From assembly GCA_017462565.1 (NCBI GenBank), contig JAFTQW010000015.1, positions 16,109 through 80,108 of the forward strand: 64,000 nt of DNA, written 5' to 3'. The notes beneath the pieces are model-generated. The model did no database searches. It was given only the letters and a program-made list of their open reading frames with translations, and had not been told where the DNA came from. Positions 3,517 through 63,618 of the stretch are shown here, in pieces. The translations under genes were made by a program, and so were the position numbers. Each line of letters starts with the position of its first letter. Position 1 is the first letter of the stretch. Origin of the DNA: Ruminococcus sp. (GTDB lineage: Bacteria; Bacillota; Clostridia; Oscillospirales; Ruminococcaceae).

Positions 3517-4359
3517 TTAACTGTCAATTTCAATCACGGTAAATTCCGGACGGTTAAAAATTCTCGGAATGAAAATCATTCTCAGCGGCTTGGCAAGTCC
3601 CTTGCTTATTATATGAACTGATTTGCCATTATTGTAATCGAACATTCCGTTGGTATAGTCGGGGAATAAGCCCTGATCGGGAGCATAGAGTCCTTGTTCG
3701 AGAATAAAAGGTATGCGCCATTGTCCTCCATGAGCGTGACCGGAGAGAATAAGATCAAATTTAACATCCCCGCTGTCGAGATATCTTTCATATTGTTCCG
3801 GCTGATGGGCGATAAGGATATTGTAAAAGTCGTTATCGAGGGTTTTAAAGGAATTTTTCAGCTGATCGTCCTTGTAAGCATTTATTACGCCGTAAATTCG
3901 GATCGGTTGATTTTTTATATCCAGCTCGAAATAATCTCCCATTGGAACGGAAATCCCAAGCAATTTTACCTCTTCGATAAAGCTTTCTTCATCGTCCCGC
4001 ATTCCCTCATGATTTCCGGGAGTGTAGAAGCAGCGGTAATTTTCCGCAGCCCATTTCATTAGAGTAAGCACGTGTTTAGTGCCGCCCCATTGGTCAACAA
4101 CGTCGCCGCCGAAAATTACGATATCGGGTTCAGCGCTTTCGATTTCCTCGATAAGACCGGACTGATCTGTTCCACCGAAAAAGCAGTTATGAAGGTCTGA
4201 AATAAAGACGATTTTCAAGCCGTTCGGGATTTTATCAGATTTTATTTTATAGTTAACTGTTTGAAGCATAAATCCCCATATATAGAGCAAAATTATGACG
4301 GCGGCAGTTATTCCGATAAAAATAAGCCGTCCTCGGAGCTTTTTGCGTTTTTCAGTCAT
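3517..4359 (-). CDS. Membrane-anchored calcineurin-like metallophosphoesterase
   Basis: N-terminal TM helix. Metallophosphoesterase motifs in order: SDLHN, GGDVVD, GNHE, IAHQP, GHAHGG. Confidence 0.85.
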   Translation of the reverse strand: MTEKRKKLRGRLIFIGITAAVIILLYIWGFMLQTVNYKIKSDKIPNGLKIVFISDLHNCFFGGTDQSGLIEEIESAEPDIVIFGGDVVDQWGGTKHVLTLMKWAAENYRCFYTPGNHEGMRDDEESFIEEVKLLGISVPMGDYFELDIKNQPIRIYGVINAYKDDQLKNSFKTLDNDFYNILIAHQPEQYERYLDSGDVKFDLILSGHAHGGQWRIPFILEQGLYAPDQGLFPDYTNGMFDYNNGKSVHIISKGLAKPLRMIFIPRIFNRPEFTVIEIDS

Positions 4360-48140: not shown

Positions 48141-48285
48141 AAAGAGCATTCCATTCCGGAACGCTCTGGTTTTTCTCAAAACTCCTCATCTTCCGGATAA
48201 ACCGCAGGATTTAGCACCTTGTCTGATTAAACAGTCAGGTTGCCGGGCTTCACAGGACCTGTTTCCTCCGCCGCTCTTGATAAGG
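48141..48285 (-). promoter_or_regulatory. SAM-I (S-box) riboswitch with terminator expression platform
   Basis: The minus strand reads CTTATCAAGAGCGGCGGAGGAAACAGGTCCTGTGAAGCCCGGCAACC...AAGGTGCTAAATCCTGC...GAAGATGAGGAG, matching the S-box core. It is followed by the hairpin AGAGCGTTCCGGAATGGAATGCTCT plus TTTATTTTT. Confidence 0.9.
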
Positions 48286-48295
48286 TTATATTTTT

Positions 48296-48324
48296 ATTAT
48301 ACACCATTGCGCACAATTTGTCAA
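48296..48324 (-). promoter_or_regulatory. Sigma-A promoter of the metK leader (TTGACA-17-TATAAT)
   Basis: Perfect hexamers on the minus strand (48324-48319 and 48301-48296) with a 17-nt spacer. Confidence 0.8.
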
Positions 48325-48590: not shown

Positions 48591-48618
48591 TTGACATTCA
48601 GAAAAAAAATGATATAAT
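48591..48618 (+). promoter_or_regulatory. Sigma-A promoter of the alaS leader (TTGACA-16-TGaTATAAT)
   Basis: TTGACA at 48591-48596 and extended -10 TGATATAAT at 48610-48618. Confidence 0.75.
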
Positions 48619-48624
48619 ATATTT

Positions 48625-48845
48625 GTATGGCAATGATGGGATTGACTGTTTACAGCGTGTTTGCAGAGAGAAAGCGGCTGGTGTGAGCTTTTACATGAAA
48701 AACAGGTGCTGCCCCTGAGCTTCCGTGGGAAACTTCGGCGTATTTCTGCGTTAAGGATAACGAGAAAAGAACGTGTTTCTTTTGAATTTGGGTGGTACCA
48801 CGAGAGCCTTCGTCCCATGCGGCGAGGCTTTTTTGCGTTTTTATG
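48625..48845 (+). promoter_or_regulatory. T-box leader (alanine specifier) controlling alaS
   Basis: Stem I AGAGAG/GGTG elements. Candidate GCT specifier at 48708-48710. T-box sequence AATTTGGGTGGTACCACG (48785-48802), whose UGGU matches an A73 discriminator. Terminator AGCCT...AGGCT plus TTTTTTGCGTTTTT. Confidence 0.85.
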
Positions 48846-58715: not shown

Positions 58716-59492
58716 ATGAAAGCATTTATTACAGGAGCAACATCCGGTATCGGAAAAAAAATCGCAGAAAAACTCAGCGAAATGGGCTGGGAGCTTGTTC
58801 TGACGGGAAGGAACAAAGAAGTTCTTGAGGAAATGCAGTCACGTCTTGGAAAAACGGAGATAATTTCTGCCGAGCTTTCTGATAAAAACGAAGTGTTCAG
58901 GGTTTATGAATTCTGCAAAGACAAAAATATAGATATGCTCGTAAACAATGCAGGATACGGTCTTTTTGGACGTTTCGATGAAATTGATCTCGATGATGAG
59001 ATAGATATGATAAACGTTAATATAACTGCTCTTCATATTCTTACGAAGCTTTTTCTGCGTGATTTTAAAAAAAGAAACAAGGGAATCATTCTTAACGTCG
59101 CTTCTGTTGCAGGATTTATGACCGGACCTCTCCTTTCTTCATATTATGCTTCAAAAAACTACGTTTTAAGGCTGTCTCTTGGTATTTATGAAGAGCTCAG
59201 ACGTGACAGATCAAAGGTAAGCATTACTGTTCTTTGTCCCGGACCGGTAGATACCGAATTCAATAACCGTGCAGGAGTCAGTTTCAGCGCAAAACCTATA
59301 ACGGCGGATTTTGCTGCGGAATATGCCATTAAAAAGGCTCTTTCAGGAAAGCTTTTCGCAATTCCCGGTCTGACAGCGAAGTTTTGCGCAGTCGGACAGA
59401 GATTTGTTCCGCAAAAGCTGCTTTCGGCTGTCACATATGAGATCCAGCACGCTAAAAAAACTTCCGGCGGAAAAGAAAGGGCTTTTAAATAA
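58716..59492 (+). CDS. Short-chain dehydrogenase/reductase (SDR)
   Basis: TGATSGIGK Rossmann motif, NNAG, and YASKNY (YxxxK). ATG 58716 follows GAAAGGAAG. Confidence 0.88.
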   Translation: MKAFITGATSGIGKKIAEKLSEMGWELVLTGRNKEVLEEMQSRLGKTEIISAELSDKNEVFRVYEFCKDKNIDMLVNNAGYGLFGRFDEIDLDDEIDMINVNITALHILTKLFLRDFKKRNKGIILNVASVAGFMTGPLLSSYYASKNYVLRLSLGIYEELRRDRSKVSITVLCPGPVDTEFNNRAGVSFSAKPITADFAAEYAIKKALSGKLFAIPGLTAKFCAVGQRFVPQKLLSAVTYEIQHAKKTSGGKERAFK

Positions 59493-60031
59493 TGCGGGAT
59501 ATAAGCTATCGTGTAGCTCTTGGAGGAATTGTTTCGGCATTATGCCTTGTGACGATGTTTCTTGCCGGAATCATTCCGGCACTGTATCTTCTTCTTCCGA
59601 TGATAGCCGGAGTTCTTATGATGATAATTGCCGTTGAAGTCAGCGGCAGCTGGGCGATGCTGACATACATAGCGGTAAGCCTTTTATCAATGATCATAAC
59701 GTTTGATAAGGAAGCGGCTTTGATTTTTATTATGCTTTTCGGTCATTATCCGATTTTACGGATTTATATAGAAAAAATTCAATTGAAAGGAATACGCTGG
59801 CTTATTAAATTTGCTGTTTTCAATATCTGCGTTGTTGCATATTTTTATGTAACAGTGTATATTTTCGGTCTTGATCAGATGCTTGAAGAGTTTGGCGAAT
59901 TTGGCAGATACGGAGCATATATCATGCTTGGAATTGCCAATGTTATTTTTGTTCTTTACGATATCAATCTTGATAATATTTATAGGATATATCGACAAAA
60001 GCTTATGCCCAAATTCAGAAAAACAAGGTGA
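59492..60031 (+). CDS. Hypothetical polytopic membrane protein
   Basis: 179 aa, about 5 hydrophobic helices. The start overlaps the SDR stop. No catalytic motif. Confidence 0.55.
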   Translation: MRDISYRVALGGIVSALCLVTMFLAGIIPALYLLLPMIAGVLMMIIAVEVSGSWAMLTYIAVSLLSMIITFDKEAALIFIMLFGHYPILRIYIEKIQLKGIRWLIKFAVFNICVVAYFYVTVYIFGLDQMLEEFGEFGRYGAYIMLGIANVIFVLYDINLDNIYRIYRQKLMPKFRKTR

Positions 60032-60165
60032 AAATAATTTTTTTAAGGCAACGGCTTTTAAAAAAGTGTATTCTGGCTGATATTGGGATTTAAAAGGAAT
60101 AATTCCATTTTGTAGCAGTCCGGAGTTGCCGACGCATATATGGTCTTCGGACGCTCTTCAGACTG

Positions 60166-60200
60166 AGCCTCTTGATTTTTCGTCAAGAGGCTTTTTATTT
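60166..60200 (+). terminator. Rho-independent terminator
   Basis: AGCCTCTTGA / TCAAGAGGCT 10-bp stem followed by TTTTTATTT. Confidence 0.85.
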
Positions 60201-60210
60201 CAGAAAAATA

Positions 60211-60239
60211 TTGACATTTGTGAAATAATGATGTATACT
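60211..60239 (+). promoter_or_regulatory. Sigma-A promoter P1 (TTGACA-17-TATACT) with no downstream ORF
   Basis: Hexamers at 60211-60216 and 60234-60239. Confidence 0.6.
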
Positions 60240-60546
60240 ATAATCATAGTTATTATAACTAAATGGGTTTCTATATGTGAATAAGAATGACGATGAATAT
60301 ATTTGAGGAATTTCCTTTTTTAAGGAAATGCTGATTAAATCCAGTGTGTTGCTGGCACAGTAAAATTTTTTGTCATATCAAAAAAGCTCCTTGACGGACG
60401 TTGGTCTGCCCGTGAAACTTTTATGTAGTCGGATCATTCGGCTGCTGCACAATCTTTGTGCGGTTCTGCCAAAACTATTCTATAAATTAAAGATAATTAA
60501 AATGATATAATTTTTTGATGCTGATAAAAATTTCGTCGAAAAAGTA

Positions 60547-60575
60547 TTGACAAATTAGATTTTCCGGTGTATAAT
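60547..60575 (+). promoter_or_regulatory. Sigma-A promoter P2 (TTGACA-17-TATAAT) with no downstream ORF
   Basis: Perfect hexamers at 60547-60552 and 60570-60575. Confidence 0.7.
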
Positions 60576-60581
60576 ATAATT

Positions 60582-60706
60582 AAAGCTTTTAAAACTTGAT
60601 TATCTGTCAATATTTCGCTTTGATAATACAAAGTGATTAATGAGTTTTAAACGCTTTTCTTTCTTAATGGATTCAGCCGTTCTTTTTAGAACGGCTGAAT
60701 TTTTTA
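60582..60706 (+). ncRNA. Candidate ~120-nt small RNA (P2 to intrinsic terminator)
   Basis: Bounded by a consensus promoter and the terminator ATTCAGCCGTTC / GAACGGCTGAAT plus TTTTT (60671-60706). Internal 14-bp imperfect stem AAAGCTTTTAAAAC / GTTTTAAACGCTTT. No RBS-preceded ORF. Confidence 0.4.
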
Positions 60707-60825
60707 TATTCCTCGCTATTCTAAAAAGCATCAAATATTATGCGTCAGATGCAAAGCCGGATTTTTTCAGACCATATAAAAACCCTACTGCACAATCTAT
60801 ATACTTAATTTAATCAGTACTTACA

Positions 60826-60988
60826 TAGGGCTTGTTTGAAAAATCCGTACATTCGTCAAAACGCCCATAAATCACTGTCTGTGTCATCGAAAATCTTTGT
60901 CAGGCGACAGCCTGCCTGCGGATTCCTTCCTGACATACATCAATTTCTGTACATTTTCCGAACATAGCTATTTTTCAAACAAGCCCTA
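60826..60988 (+). repeat. 163-nt element closed by a 19-bp perfect inverted repeat, followed by a T-run
   Basis: TAGGGCTTGTTTGAAAAAT (60826-60844) pairs with ATTTTTCAAACAAGCCCTA (60970-60988). Inner 7-bp stem TGTCAGG/CCTGACA (60897-60935). AGTTTTTTTATTTT lies downstream. Confidence 0.5.
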
Positions 60989-61019
60989 AGTTTTTTTATT
61001 TTAAAAACTAAAAAATGCG

Positions 61020-61048
61020 TTGACAAATTTCATGAGTGGTGGTATAAT
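61020..61048 (+). promoter_or_regulatory. Sigma-A promoter P3 (TTGACA-17-TATAAT)
   Basis: Perfect hexamers at 61020-61025 and 61043-61048. Confidence 0.7.
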
Positions 61049-61054
61049 TATTTT

Positions 61055-61311
61055 TATGTAAGCAATGCGCATTTTGTCAATTTAATGCGTAAAAACGTAT
61101 CGTCCTGTTCACAGCAGGTGAATAATTATAAGGACGTATTACAGGTGGTCGATGCTAAGCGGATATGCGGATTTTCTGAGTACGGCTTATTAAATCTGCA
61201 TATGTGATGTCTGACGGAAGCAATGCATAGCTTTTATTTGCCGGCGTTCGTCAGACGTATTAAGCGCAGCATTGATATTTCCATATTTTAACTGAAAGGA
61301 GAAGGCTTACT
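61055..61311 (+). promoter_or_regulatory. ~257-nt structured 5' leader of the HTH-cupin-acyl-CoA synthetase gene
   Basis: 12-bp stem ATATGCGGATTT / AAATCTGCATAT (one G-U). 8-bp stem GTCTGACG / CGTCAGAC. Stem CGTCCT / AGGACG. 10-bp palindrome AATGCGCATT. AAGCAATGC occurs twice. Ends at GAAAGGAGAAGG before ATG 61312. Confidence 0.45.
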
Positions 61312-63618
61312 ATGAGTAATTTAATTAATCCCGAATTTAAGATAAGAGAGGTCGCCGAGCGAATTAGAGCCACTCGTGAATCAGTAGGCTTGACTCCGGA
61401 GGAAATGGCTGAAAAAACCGGTATAACTACCTTCGAGTATCTTGCTTATGAGGGCGGAGCAAAGGATTTCAGCTTTAGCTTTATCTATAAATTTGCTAAT
61501 GTTACAGGCGTTGAAATAACTGACCTTATGGAGGGAGAATCGCCTCACATTAACAGCTTTGATATAACAAGAAAGGGAGAGGGGCTTCCCATTGCCCGAC
61601 GCAAGGGACTCAGCTATCAGCGCCTTGCACCAAATTTCAGAAATAAAATAGGTGAGCCGTTTCTTGTAACTATTCCATATGTTGACGAAAAGTTCAGAGT
61701 TCCGCACGCTCATACTCATGAGGGACAGGAGCTGGATATAATTATAAGCGGTCAGCTCAAAGTTCGTGTCGGCGATAATGTCGAGGTTCTCAGCGAGGGC
61801 GATTCCATTTATTACGACAGCTCCGAACCCCACGATGAATGGGCAATAGGAGGCAAGGAATGTAAATTTTACGCTGTTGTTTTCGGTACTAATCAGTATG
61901 CGGGGGCTATGTCGCATCTTGAACCGGTGACGCTTCCGGGAACGACTAACTTCGATCTCGCAAACGTTGAAAATCCCGTTGCGGATAAATTCGTTGAAGT
62001 TGAAACAAACAGCGAGGGCGCTCTTACCGGAATTAAGTTCAAGAATGAGGAAACTTTCAATTTCAGCTTCGATATCGTGGACGCTCTTGCAGCGAAAGCT
62101 CCCGATAAAACGGCTCTTATTTACGTTTCTGACGATTTTAAGGAACGCCGCTTTTCCTTTGCTGAAATAAAAAAATACTCAAACATGACTGCTAATTATT
62201 TCCTTTCAAAGGGAATCAAAAAGGGCGATAAGGTCATGCTGGTTCTTAAAAGACATTATCAGTTCTGGTTTGCTATTCTTGCTCTTCACAGAATCGGAGC
62301 TATCGTTATTCCGGCTACAAATCAGCTTGTTCAGCATGATTTCACATACCGTTTTAAAGCAGCTGACATTAAAGCTATCGTCTGCACAGGCGATGGTGAC
62401 GTTGCTCATCAGGTTGATCTTGCTATCGAGGAATCCGGAATGGATATAATCAGGATGATGGCTCACGGCGAACGTGAAGGCTGGGCTTCGTTCGATAAGG
62501 AAATGTACGAGTTCAGCGACGTTTTTGAGCGTCCGACAGATCCGGATAAGATCTCATGCGGAAGCGAACCTATGCTCATGTATTTCACATCCGGAACGAC
62601 TGGTTATCCGAAAATCGCTATGCACAGTCATAAATACGCTCTCGGTCACTTTATCACAGCTCGCTACTGGCATAATGTCGATCCTAATGGAATCCACTTG
62701 ACAATTTCAGATACAGGCTGGGGCAAGGCTCTCTGGGGCAAGCTCTACGGTCAGTGGATGAGCGAGACCTGTATTTTCGTTTATGATTTTGACAGATTTG
62801 ACGCTCATAAAATTCTCCCGATGTTCAAAAAGTATAATATTACAACTTTCTGCGCTCCTCCGACCATGTACAGATTCTTCATTAAAGAAGATCTTTCCAA
62901 ATATGACCTTAGTTCAATAAAATATGCTACAGTTGCCGGTGAAGCCCTCAATCCGGAGGTTTACAATCAGTTCCTCAAGGCAACCGGAGTTAAGCTTATG
63001 GAAGGCTTCGGTCAGACTGAAACTACCCTTGCAATCGGCAATTTTGTAGGAATGACCGCAAAGCCCGGTTCTATGGGCAAGCCGAGCGCATTGTATGATA
63101 TTGATATCGTCGACGCTGACGGCAACAGCGTTAAGCCGGGTGAAACAGGCGAGATCGTTGTTCGTCTCGATAAGGGCATTCCGTGCGGACTTTTTCTTGG
63201 ATATTACAAGGACGAAGAAAAAACAAAGGAAGTATGGTACGATAATATCTATCATACAGGCGATACCGCTTGGCGTGACGAGGACGGCTATTTCTGGTAT
63301 GTTGGACGTGTAGACGATGTTATCAAGTCGTCCGGATACAGAATCGGACCGTTTGAGATCGAAAGCGTTATCATGGAACTTCCTTATGTTCTTGAATGCG
63401 GAGTAAGCGCTGCTCCTGATCCGGTAAGAGGACAGGTAGTTAAGGCTTCTATCGTTCTCACAAAGGGAACTGTTGGAACGGACGAACTGAAAAAAGAGAT
63501 TCAGGATTATGTTAAGAAGCATACTGCTCCTTACAAATACCCGAGAATCGTAGAATTCCGTGACGAGCTTCCTAAAACTATCAGCGGAAAGATAAGACGT
63601 GTTGAGCTGAAAGGCTGA
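61312..63618 (+). CDS. Fusion protein: XRE-type HTH + cupin domain + AMP-forming acyl-CoA synthetase
   Basis: N-terminus: IRATRESVGLTPEEMAEKTGITTFEYLAYEGG (HTH_3-like), then a cupin (HAHTHEGQELDIIISGQL...GDSIYYDSSEPH). From aa ~200: YFTSGTTGYPK, GFGQTET, YHTGD, GRVDDVIKSSGYRIGPFEIES, PKTISGKIRR. Confidence 0.8.
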   Translation: MSNLINPEFKIREVAERIRATRESVGLTPEEMAEKTGITTFEYLAYEGGAKDFSFSFIYKFANVTGVEITDLMEGESPHINSFDITRKGEGLPIARRKGLSYQRLAPNFRNKIGEPFLVTIPYVDEKFRVPHAHTHEGQELDIIISGQLKVRVGDNVEVLSEGDSIYYDSSEPHDEWAIGGKECKFYAVVFGTNQYAGAMSHLEPVTLPGTTNFDLANVENPVADKFVEVETNSEGALTGIKFKNEETFNFSFDIVDALAAKAPDKTALIYVSDDFKERRFSFAEIKKYSNMTANYFLSKGIKKGDKVMLVLKRHYQFWFAILALHRIGAIVIPATNQLVQHDFTYRFKAADIKAIVCTGDGDVAHQVDLAIEESGMDIIRMMAHGEREGWASFDKEMYEFSDVFERPTDPDKISCGSEPMLMYFTSGTTGYPKIAMHSHKYALGHFITARYWHNVDPNGIHLTISDTGWGKALWGKLYGQWMSETCIFVYDFDRFDAHKILPMFKKYNITTFCAPPTMYRFFIKEDLSKYDLSSIKYATVAGEALNPEVYNQFLKATGVKLMEGFGQTETTLAIGNFVGMTAKPGSMGKPSALYDIDIVDADGNSVKPGETGEIVVRLDKGIPCGLFLGYYKDEEKTKEVWYDNIYHTGDTAWRDEDGYFWYVGRVDDVIKSSGYRIGPFEIESVIMELPYVLECGVSAAPDPVRGQVVKASIVLTKGTVGTDELKKEIQDYVKKHTAPYKYPRIVEFRDELPKTISGKIRRVELKG

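Follow-up and report, generated by a model that had tools for sequence, protein, structure and literature searches.

A window of 64,000 nucleotides (nt) on contig JAFTQW010000015.1 of a gut Ruminococcus sp. was analyzed, and attention was focused on an island of 1.28 kb (positions 60032 to 61311, about 2% of the 64-kb window) between the gene for a 179-amino-acid (aa) membrane protein and the gene for a 768-aa acyl-CoA synthetase fusion, hereafter called the synthetase. We consider it probable, though well short of certain, that the island is a composite junction, in which the tail of the upstream operon with its terminator T1 is followed by a small RNA (sRNA) locus extending from promoter P2 to terminator T2, by filler sequence, and finally by promoter P3 and a leader that stands in the place of a T-box. 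The contents of the island are real and fairly ordinary: one lineage-restricted candidate sRNA, one leader, one ordinary terminator, one hairpin that is not conserved, and one conserved promoter. An original prediction, made from the sequence before any comparison, had described several independently transcribed RNAs or leaders placed head to tail; this description held for the P2-T2 unit and for the P3 leader and failed for T1, for the hairpin, and for the distal part of the leader. Its further suggestion that the transcripts belong to undescribed RNA families agreed with the lack of any Rfam match, but it applies in a narrow sense only, to conserved pieces shared by two sister species-level clades.

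The anatomy given in the original prediction was confirmed. The longest open reading frame (ORF) overlapping the island on either strand was 57 aa, so the claim that no ORF of at least 60 aa is present stood. Three same-strand promoters (P1, P2, and P3) were found at exactly the positions given, each matching 11 or 12 of the 12 consensus hexamer bases, together with two strong terminators, T1 (stem at 60165 to 60193, 12 bp, -17.9 kcal/mol, U-tract to about 60202) and T2 (stem at 60669 to 60702, 15 bp, -22.4 kcal/mol, followed by U7), and the large hairpin element, an inverted repeat with 38-nt arms and a fold z-score of -6.25. Promoter sites matching at 11 or more of 12 positions numbered 12 in the window, and 4 of these fell within the island; in 2,000 dinucleotide shuffles of the island, the mean expectation was 0.037 such sites per strand, and three on one strand were obtained in 0 of 2,000. 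The remaining strong matches fell between genes, and two of them immediately preceded an S-adenosylmethionine (SAM) riboswitch and the alaS T-box; hence, such matches tend to mark places in this DNA where promoters are expected. These two RNAs, which had been recognized earlier in the metK/alaS spacer, were confirmed by Rfam: the SAM riboswitch at 48183 to 48286 of the minus strand (77.7 bits) with a 12/12 promoter match just upstream (48296 to 48324, minus strand) and the alaS T-box leader at 48624 to 48820 of the plus strand (96.1 bits), also with a 12/12 match just upstream (48591 to 48618, plus strand). With Rfam 15 at gathering score, they were the only elements to pass in the whole window, and no Rfam family matched within the island. 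The statement that other spacers are mostly under 350 bp fared less well in a crude check, which found several gaps of 430 to 550 bp between ORFs of at least 150 aa.

To place these elements in an evolutionary frame, the island was compared with contigs of the same species that carry it (L081 to L084 and L100) and with a sister clade (L085, L107, and L108 to L110). The sources of the same-species contigs are UOJL01005225, ERZ27244889, ERR11477379, and SRR19185078. The sister clade shows 96 to 97% protein identity and yet only 74 to 78% identity at 4-fold degenerate sites, and the latter range served as the neutral yardstick. The blocks above this level were the sRNA body (93 to 95%), positions +1 to +27 of the predicted P1 transcript (93 to 100%), the first 90 nt of the P3 leader (90 to 93%), and the translation initiation region; the remainder of the island was either at neutral level or non-homologous. 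More than half of the island (60032 to 60204, 60304 to 60470, and 60707 to 60992) had no homologue in the sister clade. The original prediction had allowed that no relative might conserve any of the island; conserved pieces were present in the sister clade, and none was found in about 100 other related loci. The features and their positions are collected in Table 1.

Table 1. Features of the island, with positions in the window
Feature	Position	Strand	Evidence or character
Upstream-operon 3' untranslated tail with T1	60032-60204	+	Terminator scan, hairpin energy
Predicted promoter P1	60211-60239	+	TTGACA-17-TATACT, 11/12; A-rich tract before it
Predicted P1 transcript start region, conserved	60246-60272	+	Perfect palindrome TAGTTAT-T-ATAACTA
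Rest of P1-to-P2 interval	60273-60546	+	No terminator detected before T2; fold z-score -2.1
Predicted promoter P2	60547-60575	+	TTGACA-17-TATAAT, 12/12
Candidate sRNA, ~125 nt	60582-60706	+	Own promoter P2 and terminator T2, conservation, fold
Variable spacer	60707-60822	.	Deleted or never present in L085, L107, and L108 to L110
Long imperfect inverted repeat	60823-60991	.	38-nt arms, 93 nt between them; window's species only
Predicted promoter P3	61020-61048	+	TTGACA-17-TGgTATAAT, 12/12, extended -10 TG
Constrained proximal leader	61055-61144	+	Two hairpins, alternative GUCCUG pairings
Distal leader	61145-61279	+	Two long hairpins in a long-range helix
Translation initiation region	61280-61314	+	Shine-Dalgarno (SD) sequence AAGGAG at 61296-61301, AUG at 61312; 94-97% conserved

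The candidate sRNA body was the only large block far above the neutral level. It differed from its sister-clade counterparts at 6 to 9 positions, versus 27 to 33 expected (P about 1e-8), and the sequence adjoining it was at or below the neutral range. P2 and T2 were both retained in all five lineages, and the hexamers of P2 were invariant while the spacer between them varied. The predicted fold consists of a 5' stem (1-21/57-76) around an 8-bp hairpin, a CU-rich single-stranded linker (UUUUCUUUCUU) that is likewise invariant, and the T2 hairpin, with a minimum free energy (MFE) of -42.3 kcal/mol (z = -7.4); the L085 copy has the same predicted fold (z = -6.6). The pair 36-53 is G.U, A-U, or G-C depending on the lineage, the other changes lie in loops, and 98% of cells are paired. 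The MFEs of the orthologues were better than those of random mutants generated with the same substitution spectrum (p 0.05 to 0.08 each). No SD-led ORF was found in the candidate sRNA, and the frame that runs through it has different ends (22 versus 57 aa) and has undergone 2 non-synonymous changes versus 1 synonymous change. Covariance models of the candidate scored 143 to 152 bits in every lineage of both clades. As far as sequence evidence can tell, P2-T2 is a self-contained unit under purifying selection, in line with the earlier proposal that it is transcribed independently, and we regard it as one good candidate sRNA that is probably either very young or very narrowly distributed. Transcription from P2 would start near 60582 and end at T2 near 60706, yielding a stable, structured RNA of about 125 nt that might have a regulatory role, exerted by its loops and by the linker, which is CU-rich, single stranded, and invariant.

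The candidate resembles the sRNAs of Firmicutes that end at Rho-independent terminators (for example, those of the RoxS/RsaE type) in having its own sigma-A promoter and intrinsic terminator, a length of about 125 nt, an intergenic position, and no coding capacity, and also in its structured body with an invariant pyrimidine-rich single-stranded stretch that is conserved above neutral. It differs from the known sRNAs in that it matched none of 4,227 Rfam families and was seen in the two sister clades only. The RoxS/RsaE motifs are C-rich, unlike the U/C-mixed linker of the candidate. A separate possibility, that P2-T2 is a relic of a T-box, was rejected: the sRNA models missed the T-box leaders, the T-box model missed the sRNA, and the closest species do not have the unit.

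Several points weigh against the interpretation of P2-T2, and of the island, given above. Covariation in the candidate sRNA was not significant in a shuffle test, since there were too few changes, and no double-sided compensatory change was seen in any single comparison. The family appears shallow, with two sister clades and 5 distinct sequences; two covariance models run over up to 92 other sources (about 0.9 Mb) gave no match, and a 20-mer scan of a metagenome collection returned one extra contig (of the same species) and four chance matches. The conservation of P2-T2 could equally reflect a role at the DNA level or in cis, and the activity of the promoters, the positions of the RNA ends, and indeed the sRNA itself are all predicted. 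When the candidate was paired with 48 start regions of the window in a naive duplex-energy screen, the ranking was uninformative (the adjacent gene came 44th), and no target could be assigned. Upstream of P2, no discrete product of P1 could be defined, and the stretch from 60246 to 60441, part of which has no sister-clade homologue, had 0 polymorphic sites among three same-species haplotypes (the window, L082, and L100), a pattern for which the composite-junction model would not account; a recent acquisition, a sweep, or species-specific constraint could each be responsible.

The main rival explanation treats P1, P2, and P3 as a tandem array of promoters in a single regulatory region for the synthetase gene. 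P2-T2 would then be an attenuator acting in cis, a leader whose terminator is conditional, and transcripts reading through T2 would supplement expression from P3; the unit would be the functional successor of the lost T-box. This would explain why all elements have the same orientation and why, in both clades, they have been kept as a set immediately before the gene; moreover, the gene family was ancestrally under a terminator-based T-box leader, and no terminator was detected between P1 and T2. However, T2 is strong, with no competing antiterminator evident in the preceding 85 nt, and about 313 nt of neutral, indel-prone sequence lies between T2 and the full-consensus, conserved P3. In addition, relatives run the gene from P3 alone without P2-T2, and no riboswitch or T-box model matches. 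We judge an attenuator unlikely and favor an sRNA locus that ends at T2 and is separate from the transcript of the synthetase gene.

That transcript would begin at P3. The next relatives (L001 to L010 and L101 to L106), in which the synthetase protein is 77 to 88% identical to that of the window, share with the island just the P3 promoter and the ribosome-binding region, and their upstream genes differ. The P3 architecture, ATTGACAAA-N14-TGnTATAAT followed by TATGTAAGCA, aligned in L001 to L010 (77 to 87% protein identity), and P3 is therefore the synthetase gene's own promoter. The leaders in these species measure 45 to 190 nt, and that of the window measures 257 nt. The proposal that P3 and the 257 nt after it form a leader was thus borne out, as a genuine 5' leader whose promoter is orthologous in 10 related species. 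Constraint within the leader was uneven. The proximal 90 nt stood above the neutral level in comparisons with the sister clade (P from 3e-5 to 2e-3), and the helices 12-19/30-37 and 43-52/77-88 were retained in all lineages. The distal 135 nt were 77 to 80% identical, which was not significant and equals neutral evolution. RNAalifold gave 70 pairs for the leader. Of the cells, 99% were paired; one pair (99-217) was compensatory, many changes were compatible with wobble pairing, and covariation was not significant with shuffle controls. Selection for overall stability was not supported, since the orthologues were not more stable by MFE than random mutants drawn from the same spectrum of substitutions. 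The distal two-thirds of the leader therefore evolved neutrally, and the overall stability of the leader was not kept. In the model that we favor, P3 would drive the synthetase gene, the 257-nt leader would replace an isoleucine-type T-box, and selection would act on the first 90 nt and the ribosome-binding region only; the proximal leader may modulate synthetase expression.

The two ends of the leader can also pair. GCUUAC at 61305 to 61310 is complementary to GUAAGC at 61058 to 61063, at the 5' end of the transcript, so that GCUUAC-U-AUG at the start codon offers a partner for the predicted P3 transcript start (UAUGUAAGC), a pairing that would close the whole leader. In 6 of the 11 related lineages compared, this closing duplex had an energy of -9 to -12 kcal/mol, and native partners were no better than swapped ones. 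Stabilizing 5'-terminal stem-loops are known in Gram-positive mRNAs, such as the aprE and ermC leaders. The P3 transcript is similar in that its first bases can form a terminal pairing, but it differs in that this pairing would occlude the start codon and is strong in only 6 of the 11 lineages. No other copies of the P3 start motif that might indicate a regulon were found in the window. As a separate observation, TGTCAAT, the reverse complement of the -35 region, occurs at 60605 to 60611 and at 61075 to 61081, 55 to 58 nt past the -35 elements of P2 and P3. Both copies lie in predicted loops of the constrained RNAs; two stretches of 100 nt are expected to share a 7-mer about 0.6 times by chance, and the coincidence may mean nothing.

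The history of the synthetase gene gives the leader its context. In more distant orthologues (60 to 69% protein identity), a full-consensus promoter lies 300 to 360 nt upstream of the gene, and a T-box (RF00230) was detected directly upstream of the orthologues in L022, L024, L027, L029, L061, and L071 at 95 to 117 bits, above the gathering threshold of 93 bits for a model that comprises Stem I with the specifier loop, Stem III, and the antiterminator. Examples are positions 3640 to 3882 in L024, 3689 to 3935 in L027, 3679 to 3921 in L029, and 3675 to 3909 in L071; across L011 to L080, the T-boxes lie about 60 to 400 nt upstream of the match start. Of 78 loci that could be assessed, 66 had the T-box signature (regular expression RGTGGNACCRCG) upstream of the gene; the window and its ten closest species did not have it. 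In the window, there was no T-box signal in Rfam at E <= 10 over 59900 to 61450 or over 61040 to 61330, and the conserved T-box sequence (..GGUGGNACCGCG..; same regular expression) was not present in 60800 to 61340. The sister clade has not kept the nearest look-alike, CAGGUGGUCGAUGC, and no intrinsic terminator was detected between P3 and the start codon. A degenerate T-box within the leader was therefore rejected, for there was neither Rfam signal nor motif nor any similarity to the T-boxes of the orthologues. The P3 leader resembles those T-box leaders in lying between a consensus promoter and the same gene, where an element of 240 nt sits in the distant loci, and in its length (257 nt versus about 300 to 350 nt), but it differs in having no T-box sequence, no match to the specifier loop or Stem I, and no terminator/antiterminator pair. 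Since the T-box is present upstream of the distant orthologues and leaves no signal in the window, the P3 leader stands where a T-box was lost.

The specifiers of the T-boxes may point to the physiology of the gene. The specifier is mostly that of isoleucine, with AUC read in L029, in L071, and, though less cleanly, among members of the Ruminococcus flavefaciens group, and it is GUA (valine) in L061. This suggests that the enzyme is tied to the supply of branched-chain amino acids, and the HTH-cupin-synthetase fusion may feed the synthesis of isoleucine or valine by activating branched-chain acids; a literature search on a link between T-boxes and 2-methylbutyrate found nothing relevant. L061 also carries a second T-box with an AUC specifier (814 to 1054), about 3 kb upstream of the synthetase T-box, that controls another gene.

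A more ambitious reading is that the T-box was replaced by a two-part RNA control, in which a 90-nt leader element with mutually exclusive GUCCUG pairings and an sRNA with an operator-controlled P1 would together sense branched-chain amino acid or fatty acid status as members of no described family. We regard this as improbable. More instructive than a possible new sRNA family is the evolutionary result: most of the Oscillospiraceae relatives examined have an isoleucine-type T-box, the closest species have a bare promoter with a short leader, and the window has a long, partly constrained leader next to an sRNA locus, which together offer a compact natural example of regulatory turnover. This turnover from a T-box is the most interesting aspect of the island, and the T-box specifier provides a lead, and one that can be tested, to the function of an unstudied enzyme fusion. 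Should the P2-T2 RNA prove to be expressed, it would represent a new, phylogenetically very narrow sRNA family in Ruminococcus, a genus in which, to our knowledge, little experimental sRNA work has been carried out; a literature search on Ruminococcus sRNAs likewise found nothing directly relevant. Current understanding is not overturned by these results, which amount to a useful annotation and a modest source of hypotheses.

The position of the island accounts for its mixed composition. The sequence or genes 3' of the 179-aa gene (at 60031/60032 of the window) differed in every lineage: a PyrR site and a pyrR-pyrC-pyrF-carAB operon follow it in L092 to L095, a convergent GDSL lipase gene follows it in L088 to L091, and an unrelated 87 nt follow it in L086 and L087, two contigs that then stop at an identical base. 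From these comparisons, the point directly 3' of the 179-aa gene is read as a recombination or rearrangement hot spot. Because the next relatives share little with the island and the flanks differ elsewhere, the island is a rearrangement junction that only the window's species and the sister clade share. The junction would have arisen when the synthetase gene came to lie beside the conserved block from comEC through the SDR gene to the 179-aa gene, in the common ancestor of the two clades.

A junction of this kind could in principle be a non-functional rearrangement scar, in which AT-rich DNA looks like promoters and terminators by coincidence and the conserved blocks reflect low local mutation or recent recombination. 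The island does sit at a synteny breakpoint and is more than half non-homologous even in the sister clade, nothing of it except P3 and the ribosome-binding region is conserved in the next-closest species, and the formal covariation tests were not significant. Nonetheless, a scar would hardly be expected to hold the three promoter matches on one strand, which far exceed the shuffled expectation, or promoter hexamers that stay invariant while their spacers change. The strong identity of the sRNA body next to sequence at or below the neutral level also argues against it, as does the placement of the window's other strong promoter matches in spacers, including those before the SAM riboswitch and the alaS T-box. 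A scar is therefore considered very unlikely, and the composite junction with functional parts is retained.

P1 lies about 335 nt upstream of P2. Both of its hexamers were retained in all four other lineages, with a -10 element of TATAAT in L107 and L108, and homology between lineages begins immediately upstream of it, at the A-tract. The predicted start region of its transcript was identical to the sister clade at 25 to 27 of 27 bases (P from 9e-4 to 4e-2), and the palindrome there could be an operator or a 5' hairpin. The palindrome occurs once in the window, and there were no further copies to indicate a regulon there. About 65 nt into the P1 transcript, the sequence is replaced in the sister clade. 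P1, with its palindromic, operator-like start, may produce a longer regulated isoform of the sRNA that would end at T2. The original prediction had treated P1 as the start of a separate RNA unit; the promoter is conserved, but a discrete product could not be delimited. On the minus strand, a promoter-like site at 60252 to 60281 (TTCACA-18-TATAAT, 11/12) faces the 179-aa gene, and its -35 element is not conserved in L085.

The segment to the left of P1 belongs to the neighboring operon. T1 lies at the end of an operon comprising MBOAT, DHHW, and SDR genes and the gene for the 179-aa membrane protein. In the sister clade, 60060 to 60195 is missing, and the stop codon is followed at once by another terminator hairpin; in the window, this sister-type hairpin is degraded, and a 135-nt insert with T1 takes its place. 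From 60195 onward, L100 and the window are 98.9% identical; to the left of P1, L100 has 134 unrelated bases (boundary at about 60200). From these alignments, T1 is identified as the terminator of the upstream operon within a strain-variable insert and not as part of an RNA gene, contrary to its earlier assignment to an independent RNA unit, the insert being absent from another strain of the same species. A weak match to the PyrR site (RF00515) was obtained at 60035 to 60200 (26.2 bits, E = 0.5; cutoff, 54 bits), directly after the 179-aa gene, where L092 to L095 hold a genuine PyrR site and a pyr operon. The match is carried by the terminator hairpin and AT-rich hairpins, and the candidate loop falls in an alignment insert. 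The UCC-G-GAGG binding loop seen in L092, which is aligned in the true site there (35.1 bits), is unaligned in the island, and no pyr genes follow. An orphan PyrR attenuator left behind by a relocated pyr operon was therefore not supported, there being also no homology to the L092 spacer.

Between T2 and P3 lies sequence that appears to be neutral filler of about 285 nt, which would have gained the long inverted repeat in the window's species. This stretch (60707 to 60991) is missing in the sister clade except for about 20 nt resembling the left arm, and it contains 16 of 31 within-species polymorphic sites, at about 5.6%, which is comparable with synonymous sites. No functional constraint on it was detected in either the sister-clade or the within-species comparison. 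The arms of the repeat (60823 to 60860 and 60954 to 60991) are 79% complementary, and their outer 22 nt are 95% complementary, but pairs of the stem are lost through two uncompensated polymorphisms (60838 G>A as well as 60823 A>C). Absent from the sister clade and with stem mutations accumulating at the neutral rate, the 19-bp-stem hairpin was not upheld as an RNA unit. On present comparisons, the simplest explanation is that a local stretch was recently duplicated in inverted orientation or that a palindrome was inserted as a single copy.

A related explanation is that the inverted repeat, and perhaps the T1 insert as well, is a mobile or palindromic element similar to a miniature inverted-repeat transposable element (MITE) or a repetitive extragenic palindromic (REP) sequence. 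Its presence in the window's species and not in the sister clade, its long terminal inverted arms, and its neutral-level polymorphism with uncompensated stem changes would all be expected of such an element. A mobile element should, however, leave other traces: the 64-kb window, 110 related loci, and a plasmid collection contained no second copy, no target-site duplication was visible, and the one phage match fell in the T1 region instead. The roughly 20 nt of left-arm-like sequence in the sister clade fit a local duplication-inversion or a deletion equally well. A MITE- or REP-like origin thus seems quite unlikely to us, and a local event within neutral filler is preferred.

Coding capacity and foreign origin of the island were examined separately. 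Just two weak SD-plus-start combinations were present across the island, neither of them conserved, and ten peptides from the island had no match in Pfam. It is extremely improbable that one of the units encodes a small protein, such as a type I toxin. The case for one would be a short ATG frame after P1 (ATGACGATG...), which gives hydrophobic peptides of 21 to 26 aa in L085 and L108, but the frame, its length (15, 21, 35, and 26 aa), and its sequence differ in each lineage, and no SD sequence precedes it; the frame through the sRNA likewise has no SD sequence and varying ends. A conserved small hydrophobic ORF with an SD sequence, as expected of a type I toxin-antitoxin system, was not seen in the lineage alignment. 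A decayed gene remnant was also rejected. The original prediction had raised the possibility of a frameshifted protein gene, and tblastx, run against every locus and the remainder of the window, matched the sister lineage L085 only, at similar scores in all six frames. No tRNA or transfer-messenger RNA (tmRNA) genes were found in the island, and the sub-threshold Rfam matches there were terminator look-alikes and eukaryotic or viral families. A plasmid or phage origin was rejected as well: blastn in distant mode gave no match to plasmids and a single 54-nt match to phages (E = 7e-4), which falls in the T1 region and outside the inverted repeat.

The 179-aa gene (59492 to 60031) closes a comEC-holA-Toprim-MBOAT-DHHW-SDR block; its product had no Pfam match, and one source labels a homologue as a component of an energy-coupling factor (ECF) transporter. 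The 768-aa gene (61312 to 63618) encodes an XRE-type helix-turn-helix (HTH) domain, a cupin domain, and an AMP-binding acyl-CoA synthetase domain. Both proteins are identical to entries from a Ruminococcus sp. metagenome-assembled genome (MBQ8348733.1 and MBQ8348734.1). L100 and the window disagree at 12 sites packed into 76 nt (63477 to 63552) at the 3' end of the 768-aa gene, versus about 1% elsewhere, a cluster that looks like a recombination tract.

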